From assembly GCA_964535675.1 (NCBI GenBank), contig CAZHTD010000010.1, forward strand, positions 2,100 through 66,099: a stretch of 64,000 bases of DNA. Direction: 5' to 3'. A program made the translations under genes and the position numbers. Position 1 is the first letter of the stretch. Every line of letters starts with the position of its first letter. The stretch is from an uncultured Bifidobacteriaceae bacterium. GTDB taxonomy: Bacteria; Acidobacteriota; Vicinamibacteria; Vicinamibacterales; UBA2999. Under the pieces are notes generated by a model that worked only from the letters and a program-made list of their open reading frames with translations, was not told the DNA's origin and ran no database searches. Shown one piece after another: positions 56,764 through 59,172 of this stretch.

Positions 56764-59172
56764 ATGGCTGAGCAACCCAGTGCAACTCCTGACACGACGG
56801 TACCGGGAACAACCGTCCTGCCGTCGTTCGCCAACGCGCTGCCGTACTTCGTTTCACTAGGGCTGTTCCCGCTGCTGGCCATTGCCGCGATGCAGGGTGG
56901 CTGGTGGATTGCCGCTCCTTACCTCTATTTCATGATTCCAGATGTCTTCGATGCCATGTCCGGCGCTGACGAAGGGAATATGGACCCGCGGCGCACGCTT
57001 GACCGCCAGTTGTCCTGGTACAAGCTCGCCGTCTGGGCGTGGGGAGTCCTTTGGCCGGTCACGTTGGTGTTCTCGCTTTGGCAGATGCTGGTACTGAACC
57101 ACCTCTCGTGGGTCGAAATCATGTTTATGGCGTTCGTGCTGACCACTGTGGGGCAGGTCTCGTTCATCATCGGCCATGAACTGATTCATCGGCGTGCCGT
57201 TTGGGAGCGTCGACTCGGCGAACTTGTATTGGCGTCGGTCTCGTATCCGACCTATGCGTCGGAACACATCTTTGTCCATCATGCTCTAGCTTGCACTCCT
57301 GGAGATCCCGGTTCCGCGCCCAAGGGCGTGAGTTTCTGGAGTTACCTCCCGCGGGAAGTCATGAGCAACCTAACGGGGGCCTGGCAGTTCGAACAGCAGC
57401 GGCTGGCTCGACGTCATCGGCCAGTGTGGCACTACACGAACCCATTCTGGCGTTACGGCGGCCTGACCGTAGGCTGGTACGTACTCGTGTACTGGATGGG
57501 GGGGCCTTGGGCCGTGCTGTGTTACGCGCTTCTGTGCGGCGGCGTGATCCTCTCGATGAAGCTCATCAACTATGTCCAACACTACGGGCTCCGCCGCATC
57601 CGGCTGCCCAACGGTCGATACGAGCGAGTCTGGTCATGGCATTCCTGGAGCGCGGCGTACAAGTTGAGCAACTGGTTCTTCTACAACATGCAGCGCCATC
57701 CGGACCACCACATCGCGCCGCGTAGGCGTTATCCGGTGTTGCAGCACTGCGGCGACGATGCCGCACCGCAACTGCCGGGAACCTACATGGAGATGGCTGG
57801 CCTCGCGGTGATGCCCAAGCGCTGGTTCAAGAAGATGGATCCGCTCGTGGATCATTGGCGCAAACATTTCTATCCCGACATCGACGACTGGAGCGCCTAC
57901 GACAGCCTGGCAACCGCAGAACGCCCAGAGGCGTTCGAGGAAATTACCGAAATCTTCGCTTCGGCGCCTCGACTAGCGAGCAGGATCAATCGGGCTCCGG
58001 AGCTGCTCGATACGCTCAGGGACAAGGAATTTACCGATCTCGATCTGCCGAAGGGGTTCGGTCCGAACGAGGACTTCGAGGCGATCGCGCGCTGCGGCCT
58101 CACGCGGCTCTACTGGACGCGCGAGTTCGACGTCCCCGAAATGCGTGAGCGCATTGCCGACTACCCGGTGCAGGACGTGCACGACACCGTAAACGCCACG
58201 CGGAACTGGTCCAACGACAAGGTGTTCCAAATCGGTATGCACACCCTGCGCTGCAACCTAACGCCCGGCGAGGCCGGAACGGCGCTGTCGAACGTCGCCG
58301 AAGCCACGCTGGGTGCAGTACTGGCAGCGATCGAAGAGGACTTCGCAGGACGCAGCAGCACGGGCGGCCTCGCCGCGGTGATGCTGGGTGATGTTGCGAG
58401 CCGCGAGGCGGCACCGGACCTCGAGCTCAAGCTCTTGCTGGTCTACGACGGTACGCCGGCGACACACTACGCCGCGCTGTGCCGGACGATTCGCGATGCA
58501 CTGCGCACCCTTACGCTCGACAACCTGCTGTTTGCGCCGGTGCCGAGCGAGGAGAACCGAATCACAGCCATGTCGCTCGCGGACTTCGCAGTCGGGGTCG
58601 GCAACGACGCAGCGGCGGTCGTACCTGGGGACCTGGTCCGGGCGCGGTGCATCTTCACGTTCGGCGACGCCGCGATCGAACGGCGATTCGAGGCAGCGCG
58701 GCTTGAAGCCGTCGCCCGCGAGGGCCGCCGTGCCGCTTTGATTGGCGAGGCTGACGAGACTGCGGGCGCTTCCGGCGAGACGGGTGCGACGCCGCTCGAC
58801 CCCGAACGCGGCGGTTTCCTGGATATCGAGCAGGCTGCCACCACGCTACGCCAGAAACTTGCCATCGCAGATGACGGCGTTCGTGCACTCGGCGCCGCGT
58901 CAGTGTTCCGCACGGCTGGCGAGCGCGGACTCGTTGACGGCGCTGCCGCCGAGCGCCTAGCACAAGCGGCGACCCTGTGGCGCAACCTGTACGGGATACG
59001 CTGCCTCATTGCCAAGGGTGATCTCGACATCGAGTCAGCCAAGGCCGGGGTCAGAGCGACCATCGCCCGTGCGTGCGGCTTTGACGATTTCGACGCATTG
59101 ACGGCGACCGTCCGTGCAACCGCGAGCCAAGCCGCCGCCGATATCGACGCACTGCAACCCTCGAACTGCTAG
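56764..59172 (+). CDS. AlkB-type integral-membrane alkane 1-monooxygenase fused to a GlnE-like (glutamine synthetase adenylyltransferase-type) nucleotidyltransferase module
   Basis: 802 aa counted from ATG 56764.

Residues 1 to about 395 have TM helices and all four AlkB histidine boxes: HELIHR, EHIFVHH, NYVQHYGL and QRHPDHH.

Residues about 400-802 are colinear with one GlnE NT domain plus its helical C-domain:
- NDKVFQIGMHTLRCNL..GEAG..LSNVAEATLGAVL
- LAAVMLGDVASREAAPDLELKLLLVYDG
- RGGFLDIEQAATTLRQK
- LAQAATLWRNLYGIRCL

The G-x-G-G..S / DxD catalytic signature is not conserved. Confidence 0.85.
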   Translation: MAEQPSATPDTTVPGTTVLPSFANALPYFVSLGLFPLLAIAAMQGGWWIAAPYLYFMIPDVFDAMSGADEGNMDPRRTLDRQLSWYKLAVWAWGVLWPVTLVFSLWQMLVLNHLSWVEIMFMAFVLTTVGQVSFIIGHELIHRRAVWERRLGELVLASVSYPTYASEHIFVHHALACTPGDPGSAPKGVSFWSYLPREVMSNLTGAWQFEQQRLARRHRPVWHYTNPFWRYGGLTVGWYVLVYWMGGPWAVLCYALLCGGVILSMKLINYVQHYGLRRIRLPNGRYERVWSWHSWSAAYKLSNWFFYNMQRHPDHHIAPRRRYPVLQHCGDDAAPQLPGTYMEMAGLAVMPKRWFKKMDPLVDHWRKHFYPDIDDWSAYDSLATAERPEAFEEITEIFASAPRLASRINRAPELLDTLRDKEFTDLDLPKGFGPNEDFEAIARCGLTRLYWTREFDVPEMRERIADYPVQDVHDTVNATRNWSNDKVFQIGMHTLRCNLTPGEAGTALSNVAEATLGAVLAAIEEDFAGRSSTGGLAAVMLGDVASREAAPDLELKLLLVYDGTPATHYAALCRTIRDALRTLTLDNLLFAPVPSEENRITAMSLADFAVGVGNDAAAVVPGDLVRARCIFTFGDAAIERRFEAARLEAVAREGRRAALIGEADETAGASGETGATPLDPERGGFLDIEQAATTLRQKLAIADDGVRALGAASVFRTAGERGLVDGAAAERLAQAATLWRNLYGIRCLIAKGDLDIESAKAGVRATIARACGFDDFDALTATVRATASQAAADIDALQPSNC

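Follow-up and report, generated by a model that had tools for sequence, protein, structure and literature searches.

Two described protein families frame the gene reported here. AlkB of Fontimonas thermophila (PDB 8f6t, 8sbb) is a membrane di-iron enzyme with four histidine boxes; AlkB-rubredoxin fusions bear their extra domain, a redox carrier, at the C-terminus, and 8f6t itself was deposited as an AlkB-AlkG complex. Genuine GlnE, the adenylyltransferase of glutamine synthetase, is a protein of ~950-1000 residues built from two units, one adenylyl-removing (AR) and one adenylyltransferase (AT), with the domain content GlnE x2 plus GlnD_UR_UTase x2. Both architectures meet in one gene of a 64,000-nucleotide stretch of contig CAZHTD010000010.1 (assembly GCA_964535675.1, positions 2,100 to 66,099), hereafter the window, in which a frame at 56764-59172 joins an AlkB-like oxidase to a single GlnE-derived module. 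This fusion couples an enzyme of the AlkB family to a novel pseudoenzyme domain, and its family belongs to a known but unsolved gene cluster, srp.

The srp cluster is a sponge-derived proteusin cluster, that is, one for a peptide that is made on the ribosome and modified after translation (RiPP), described by Nguyen et al. (2021; J Am Chem Soc 143:10221) and taken here from the work citing that paper (PMC10858898; PMC10286304; bioRxiv 10.1101/2023.06.09.544420). According to these sources, SrpC installs three thiazolines and the terminal Trp receives its bromine from SrpI. Only these two steps have been reconstituted, poorly or incompletely (PMC10286304; bioRxiv 10.1101/2023.06.09.544420); one paper refers to "several genes of unknown function" (PMC11832590). 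Within the accessible srp literature, which excludes the defining 2021 paper, only SrpE, SrpC and SrpI are discussed and no AlkB/desaturase or GlnE-like gene appears.

A single gene encodes both domains

The fusion gene is one uninterrupted frame of 802 codons plus stop on the forward strand. A longer alternative open reading frame (ORF) begins with a TTG at 56698; the gene nevertheless starts at the ATG at 56764, as homologues open with the same MAEQP... sequence. Conservation figures throughout refer to a family alignment of 110 sequences (the window protein and 109 homologues). The features of the gene are as follows.

56764-59172, forward strand: complete coding sequence of an AlkB-like di-iron oxidase with a predicted pseudo-GlnE-AT module (translation; end-to-end alignment with 109 homologues)
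56851-57882, forward strand: AlkB-family membrane di-iron domain, residues 30-373 (8f6t, 8sbb, Pfam FA_desaturase, Foldseek)
57175-57189, forward strand: His box 1, HELIH within GHELIHRR (H138 and H142, both invariant)
57262-57282, forward strand: His box 2, EHIFVHH within SEHIFVHH (H168 and H173 invariant, H172 at least 90% conserved)
57568-57591, forward strand: His box 3, NYVQHYGL (H273; Q272 invariant, in place of the E of canonical NYxEHYGL)
57691-57711, forward strand: His box 4, QRHPDHH (H312, H315 and H316; translation and 110-sequence alignment)
57883-57906, forward strand: junction motif I-DDWSAYDS, residues 374-381, diagnostic of the fusion (D375, W376, Y379, D380 and S381 invariant)
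57907-59169, forward strand: module derived from a GlnE adenylylation unit, residues ~382-802, with helical lead-in, nucleotidyltransferase (NT)-fold core and C-terminal helical domain (PRK14108, 3k7d, Foldseek, P0153)
58372-58452, forward strand: degenerate nucleotidyltransferase signature AAVMLGDVASREAAPDLELKLLLVYDG, residues 537-563, against GKLG[GS]RE...SSDLDL in GlnE (column statistics, 110 sequences)
58519-58551, forward strand: third-carboxylate site, DNLLFAPVPSE where GlnE has ...LYDVDMRLRPSG (five-residue deletion in the MAFFT alignment)
58804-58833, forward strand: ERGGFLDIEQ, residues 681-690, in the C-terminal helical domain, with GlnE counterpart KPGGLLDVEF (G683, G684 and E689 at least 90% conserved)

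The sequence-only reading that first singled out this frame left room for two separate genes, or for a stop near the junction. That an assembly or gene-calling artefact joined two genes is already refuted: the frame is continuous, the two-domain layout extends end to end in at least 110 aligned homologues and in the 80 best genome loci, several of which lie on closed long-read chromosomes of metagenome-assembled genomes (MAGs), and the junction motif DDWSAYDS, which served as the search pattern in our genome scan, is conserved across the family. A near-identical protein (P0271, in the same 90%-identity cluster as the window protein) also recurs in the same gene context on contigs of three independent assemblies. 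An AlphaFold model built on the 110-sequence alignment was confident (mean predicted local distance difference test, pLDDT, 84.4; predicted template modelling score, pTM, 0.81), and the pTM suggests high confidence between the domains as well. The gene product is a two-part inner-membrane protein.

The AlkB-like half retains the di-iron ligands

Three kinds of comparison agree with the earlier assignment of the N-terminal half to AlkB-type di-iron enzymes. Pfam FA_desaturase (PF00487) matches residues 120-344 with 87.9 bits (cut-off 29.7); the solved AlkB structures are matched over residues 30-373 (8f6t, E=1.5e-52; 8sbb, E=6e-41) at 31-32% identity; and Foldseek places the N-terminal half of the model on the same two structures (E=4e-16 and 9e-13, target template modelling (TM) scores 0.72 and 0.76). 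Every motif quoted in the sequence-only reading is present, including the four His boxes, the RGGxxDIE motif (within ERGGFLDIEQ) and the C-terminal sequence AAVMLGDVASREAAPDLELKLLLVY (residues 537-561). Compared with the canonical patterns given there (HELxHK, EHxxGHH, NYxEHYGL and LQRHSDHH), the family has HELIHR, EHI[FY][VI]HH, NYVQHYGL and QRHPDHH: the histidines are kept, the Gly of box 2 is missing, and an invariant Gln stands where box 3 would have Glu. All nine di-iron ligand histidines are present, each invariant or at least 90% conserved. On the evidence of these residues the metal site is intact, so that the AlkB half can be expected to activate O2 for the oxidation of some hydrophobic substrate.

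The fusion shares with Fontimonas AlkB the fold, the four boxes and the nine histidines, and it carries its extra domain at the same end as the AlkB-rubredoxin fusions. In contrast, what is appended is a predicted pseudo-nucleotidyltransferase rather than a redox carrier, the family comes without rubredoxin or reductase, and its genomic company is a RiPP cluster and not alk genes. The absence of a rubredoxin gene, remarked on in the sequence-only reading, extends beyond the window: no rubredoxin-like CxxCG...CxxCG ORF was found in it or in any of 84 loci. Nor was an alk operon context seen, the neighbours in these loci being RiPP or housekeeping genes.

The C-terminal module is predicted to be a conserved pseudoenzyme

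The C-terminal half had been read as one adenylyltransferase unit of GlnE, and profile and structure searches bear this out. NCBIfam PRK14108 (alphaproteobacterial GlnE) is matched at model positions 633-975 of 986, in the second, adenylylating unit (E=4e-18), with a score of 64 bits against a curated threshold of 724. The Pfam GlnE score of the window protein falls just below threshold (21.8 versus 24 bits); a precomputed PF03710 match exists in many homologues. Compared with the PDB, the profile of the 110 homologues finds 3k7d, the AT domain of E. coli GlnE (E=1.6e-18), and 1v4a, its N-terminal unit (1e-4). Foldseek with the C-terminal half of the model returns 1v4a (E=5e-10, target TM 0.67) and 3k7d (E=3e-9), followed by the GlnE-like AMPylase DrrA (6yx5). 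We aligned the module by MAFFT with four genuine GlnE AT halves, of which that of P0153, the closest full-length genuine GlnE found, is 36% identical and colinear over ~400 residues. Likeness to GlnE covers the helical lead-in (APRLAEW..P.L...REFTDL.LP), the NT core, the C-terminal domain (GGL.D.E...LW.NL.G) and the fold. Three candidates for stand-alone GlnE-like modules (P0122, P0126 and P0129; 409-456 residues) start mid-motif and look like truncated gene calls, and were set aside.

The differences concern the catalytic site above all. The fusion has a single unit, lacks a segment of ~13 residues after beta-2, is joined to a membrane enzyme and shows no link to glnA or PII in the loci examined. 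GKLG[GS]RE of GlnE is replaced by the family loop G-D-L-A-S-G-E (LGDVAS...ELK in the window protein), and this remodelled loop is near-invariant (G542 100%, A545 97%, S546 92%, E548 91%, P551 98%). The old DxD sites, in contrast, are not conserved: position 554 is E in 73, D in 12, A in 8 and K in 5 of the 110 sequences, and position 556 is D in 73, R in 13, E in 11 and K in 5, the window protein having E and K. About two thirds of the family keep E-x-D there. The five-residue D-x-R-L-R strand that holds the third carboxylate is deleted in every fusion member aligned, so the catalytic degeneration proposed from the G-loop and DxD goes further than had been noticed. In the AlkB half, ratios of non-synonymous to synonymous substitution rates (dN/dS) are 0.06-0.16; in the GlnE-like half they are 0.22-0.29. 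With values of 0.085 and 0.286, the window copy is indistinguishable from cluster-linked copies, and both halves are under purifying selection. Because the new loop is near-invariant and selection is purifying, we read the module as a dead nucleotidyltransferase that is conserved as a pseudoenzyme domain, not as decaying sequence.

An active but non-canonical nucleotidyltransferase (AMPylase) is very improbable by the same data. The predicted GlnE/DrrA-type fold, the strongly conserved loop and the E-x-D of most members would be expected of it; however, GKLGG has become GDLAS, the window protein has E-x-K, 18 of the 110 members carry R or K at the second site, and the third-carboxylate strand is missing from all members aligned.

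The fusion is a near-core gene of srp clusters

Neighbours of the 80 best loci were clustered and annotated, and srp genes were then recounted by tblastn over 82 loci. We rely on the latter count, as greedy ORF calling undercounts neighbours in GC-rich loci, where long antisense ORFs mask real genes. The recurrent neighbours are a fused leader-binding/YcaO cyclodehydratase (TIGR03882 + TIGR03604; TOMM_cyclo_SagD), a precursor with an NHLP leader (leader_NHLP), a Trp_halogenase, S-adenosylmethionine (SAM) methyltransferases resembling the lipid-type CMAS and Mtf2, an HAE3/MMPL transporter with a sterol-sensing-domain match, a LolA-like/DUF1329 protein and a C39-peptidase ATP-binding cassette (ABC) exporter with HlyD. 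At their C-terminus the precursors carry ITEEQLEAISAGLCCCW, which is the published srp signature (bioRxiv 10.1101/2023.06.09.544420; PMC10858898). Relatives of the fusion thus sit among an SrpE-type NHLP precursor, an SrpC-type YcaO and an SrpI-type Trp halogenase.

An srp core gene lies within 10 kb of the fusion in 67 of the 82 loci (YcaO in 57, NHLP precursor in 50, halogenase in 21). In 37 loci YcaO is the same-strand gene directly downstream; 28 of these allowed a choice of start codon, and there the nearest candidate start lies a median of 28 nucleotides away, with 8 overlaps. The reverse test gave the same picture: 27-28 of 32 metagenome loci anchored on YcaO contain the fusion, in 14 cases directly upstream of it. 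The fusion gene is therefore, in the family, a near-core srp gene that usually lies upstream of the SrpC-type YcaO in an operon-like arrangement, a linkage that is new here. With srp RiPP genes and not alk genes as its conserved partners, the label "alkane hydroxylase" given in the sequence-only reading is probably wrong; the RiPP context could not be seen from the window, because the copy there is an orphan.

Further observations concern the composition of these clusters. A conserved protein of ~372 residues is encoded in 43 of 82 loci, usually just after the YcaO gene (for example at 14874-16001 of locus L010). It matches neither Pfam nor NCBIfam families and represents another near-core srp gene. 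Another protein, of ~433 residues, occurs in 17 of 82 loci (L001, 19131-20432; L084, 20407-21708) and joins an NHLP-leader-like N-terminal domain (TIGR03793, E=7e-12) to a weak squalene-hopene-cyclase-C-like match, so that the leader-like part is followed by a putative enzyme or binding domain. Some precursors of L010, L014 and L044 end in LCCCGV or LCCCGL instead of LCCCW and so offer no Trp to brominate; within 10 kb of the fusions at L010 and L014 no halogenase was detected, as would suit an srp subtype without that enzyme. At L084 (12542-13815), the closest cluster-linked relative of the window copy, the Trp halogenase and an adjoining barrel protein are each split into two calls, possibly by pseudogenisation or a frameshift in that MAG.

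The fusion is widespread

No AlkB-GlnE-like fusion was known to the sequence-only reading. The architecture is in fact common, with hundreds of protein clusters, presence in up to 415 species-level genomes and precomputed matches to both Pfam domains. A protein search returned 918 relatives, of which the best 120 are nearly all two-domain proteins of ~800 residues (54-84% identity) together with a handful of short forms of ~650 residues. By the genome scan, as many as 415 species-representative genomes from at least six phyla contain relatives. The best 80 loci all come from MAGs, assigned to Gamma- and Alphaproteobacteria, Nitrospirales, Binatia, Acidobacteriota, Gemmatimonadota and others; the association of many of them with marine sponges is taken from record titles and sample labels only, with no formal enrichment test. 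Annotation is generic: where names are given, they are "fatty acid desaturase" or "hypothetical protein". Searches of the literature for combinations of AlkB, GlnE, desaturase, proteusin and RiPP turned up nothing relevant and no characterisation of the fusion, so that the earlier caveat of a common and already annotated architecture holds for abundance and generic annotation and not for characterisation.

Variants of the family were also seen. Natural short forms (~650-660 residues; P0040, P0042, P0055, P0092 and P0100) lack the last ~150 residues, which make up the C-terminal helical domain; those at L013, L014, L015 and L036 are still directly upstream of YcaO, e.g. in Candidatus Foliamicus. 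Locus L040 carries, beside an intact fusion, a second and apparently degraded copy (13838-16627, reverse strand) whose N-terminal half is 56-66% identical and whose C-terminal half is interrupted between residues ~162 and 291. Several gammaproteobacterial srp loci (L041, 5673-6761; L045; L050; L059; L093, 179-1267) contain, within a few kb of the fusion, a second, stand-alone FA_desaturase-family gene whose product has 363 residues and shares ~24% identity with the AlkB half. L093 had seemed to place the module on another partner; it carries an ordinary fusion, and the stray match is this separate desaturase paralogue.

The copy in the window is an orphan

Apart from the fusion, no srp gene was found in the 64-kb window, and the same orphan context is reproduced in three assemblies (the contigs of P0271). 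The two closest relatives, at 84% and 83% identity, adjoin complete srp clusters. Nucleotide homology to L084, L001 and L004 (80-85%) is confined to 56761-59153 and to a 30-nucleotide promoter-like element, found at -72 to -43 of the ATG (~42 nucleotides away) in the relatives and 414 nucleotides upstream in the window. The following features lie upstream of the gene.

53691-53765: tRNA-Gly(CCC)
55130-55204: tRNA-Val(CAC)
56320-56349, forward strand: promoter-like element TTGACGCTGTGCCCAGCCGCCCGGGACAAT (TTGACG-N18-GACAAT), common to cluster-linked relatives
56350-56730, forward strand: unique leader sequence of ~375 nucleotides between the promoter-like element and the conserved last ~33 nucleotides, absent in relatives

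The flanks are housekeeping in character (upstream tRNA-Gly, tRNA-Val and an outer-membrane protein; downstream DUF948, YtxH and MlaD/F/E), and the two tRNAs are followed by ~1.5 kb without a supported gene. The unique leader recurs neither elsewhere in the window nor in any locus; a structured RNA within it was considered and dropped (no Rfam match, fold z-score 0.33). GC content is 0.585-0.62 between ~55.1 and 58.1 kb, against ~0.65-0.69 around it, which is suggestive of acquired DNA and not decisive. An integrase remnant or tRNA island was rejected, since the ORF at 55263-55868 (reverse strand), integrase-like by eye, has no Pfam match and a search for att-like direct repeats of the tRNA-Val end gave none. 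The window copy would be a stand-alone gene that brought its promoter along and not the rest of the cluster.

Degenerate GlnE modules also occur on RND pumps

Searches with the C-terminal half additionally gave proteins of ~1520 residues in which a pump of the AcrB-type resistance-nodulation-division (RND) class bears a similarly degenerate GlnE-AT module (P0173/P0178). The family, which appears to be undescribed, comprises at least 120 clusters (P0173, P0178 and P0279-P0396) and lies outside srp clusters; in three loci (L142-L144) a membrane-fusion-protein gene precedes the pump and there are no RiPP neighbours. As in the AlkB fusion, a polytopic membrane protein has a dead module (DxD and DxRLRP lost) at its cytoplasmic C-terminus, and the MAG sources are similar. 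Unlike it, the RND protein has another membrane partner, is found apart from srp, is paired with the membrane-fusion-protein gene and has a module that is ~32% identical to that of the fusion and lacks the five-residue deletion. Because of this low identity and the missing deletion, the two modules may have been recruited from GlnE independently, in two events instead of one. The occurrence on RND pumps outside srp points to a general cytoplasmic appendage and not to a dedicated srp leader receptor; by analogy between the two families, the dead GlnE module is probably a general regulatory or partner-binding appendage of membrane proteins. The regulatory, ligand-sensing or scaffolding role suggested in the sequence-only reading is compatible with this.

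Proposed function and alternative readings

We propose, with a probability of roughly 0.5, that the fusion is an oxidative tailoring enzyme of the srp pathway with a non-catalytic GlnE-derived module. The AlkB half would perform O2-dependent tailoring at the membrane, acting on the hydrophobic modified core or on the released product; the core would bear three thiazolines, with or without 6-bromo-Trp, and the reaction might be C-H hydroxylation or thiazoline-to-thiazole desaturation. Among the top 25 neighbour families there is no SagB-type dehydrogenase, in a survey that included no search aimed at SagB. Electrons would come from a donor encoded elsewhere, since no rubredoxin is nearby, and the dead module would modulate or scaffold as a regulatory or partner-binding domain. 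A more specific version, which we offer only tentatively, is that the AlkB half oxidises the ribosomal peptide directly (thiazolines to thiazoles, or hydroxylation of LCCCW), gated by a pseudo-GlnE module that senses nucleotide, glutamine or PII. Several points weigh against a tailoring role. Linkage to srp is observed for the relatives and not for the window copy, which has no srp gene within 64 kb, and 15 of the 82 related loci have none within 10 kb; such orphan loci imply that a cluster-independent role of the enzyme may exist. No electron donor is encoded nearby. E-x-D in about two thirds of the members may allow residual metal or nucleotide binding without transfer. In the solved AlkB structures (8f6t/8sbb) the active site is reportedly reached via a lipid-facing tunnel, which would suit lipids over a leader-bound peptide.

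Action on a membrane lipid, providing a hydroxylated or desaturated lipid for attachment to the peptide or remodelling the producer membrane for export or self-protection, is the main rival to tailoring of the srp product, and one we consider doubtful. The FA_desaturase superfamily normally acts on acyl chains, the clusters hold lipid-type transporters (HAE3/MMPL with its sterol-sensing match, LolA-like) and methyltransferases similar to CMAS and Mtf2, and orphan fusion copies exist without a cluster; yet no acyltransferase or ligase recurs in the clusters, and the tight coupling is to YcaO, not to transporters. Genes of the HAE3/MMPL and LolA-like/DUF1329 types also accompany hydrophobic-substrate systems, and their presence beside relatives, together with the clear AlkB homology, fold and nine histidines, could be read, in line with the sequence-only reading, as signs of a true alkane 1-monooxygenase that serves hydrocarbon catabolism and has gained a regulatory domain. 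We find this improbable, given that rubredoxin, reductase and other alk genes are missing from the window and from more than 80 loci, that identity to solved AlkBs is only 31-32%, that departures from AlkB are family-invariant (EHIY[IV]HH for EHxxGHH in box 2, Q for E in box 3) and that the conserved partners are RiPP genes. A last alternative assigns the dead module to srp itself, as a docking domain that binds the NHLP leader or SrpC and recruits maturation to the membrane. Operon-like spacing with YcaO speaks for it, as do the poor performance of SrpC alone in E. coli (PMC10286304) and the indifference of the published brominase to the structured part of the SrpE leader, which leaves it to another possible reader (PMC12537861; PMC10858898). 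But SrpC-type YcaOs have a leader-binding domain of their own (TIGR03882), variants of ~650 residues without the last ~150 still adjoin YcaO, and a similarly degenerate module sits on RND pumps in loci without RiPP genes; we downgraded the docking function to unlikely once those RND fusions were found.

Significance

For the reconstitution of srp, a pathway widespread in sponge microbiomes, a membrane di-iron oxidase nearly as constant as YcaO is a concrete missing enzyme to add. The family also constitutes a large, cross-phylum clade of AlkB whose context argues against alkane catabolism. Since hydrocarbon degradation is widely inferred from alkB as a marker gene, surveys of sponge metagenomes would count false positives, and the clade should not be taken as evidence of that process. 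For pseudoenzyme biology, a predicted dead GlnE adenylylation unit has found a second use at the C-terminus of two membrane proteins that are unrelated to each other. If direct peptide oxidation gated by the pseudo-GlnE module were true, this would be the first peptide-modifying AlkB, and the module would represent a new class of pseudoenzyme regulatory domain common to membrane oxidases and RND pumps of mostly sponge-associated MAGs.

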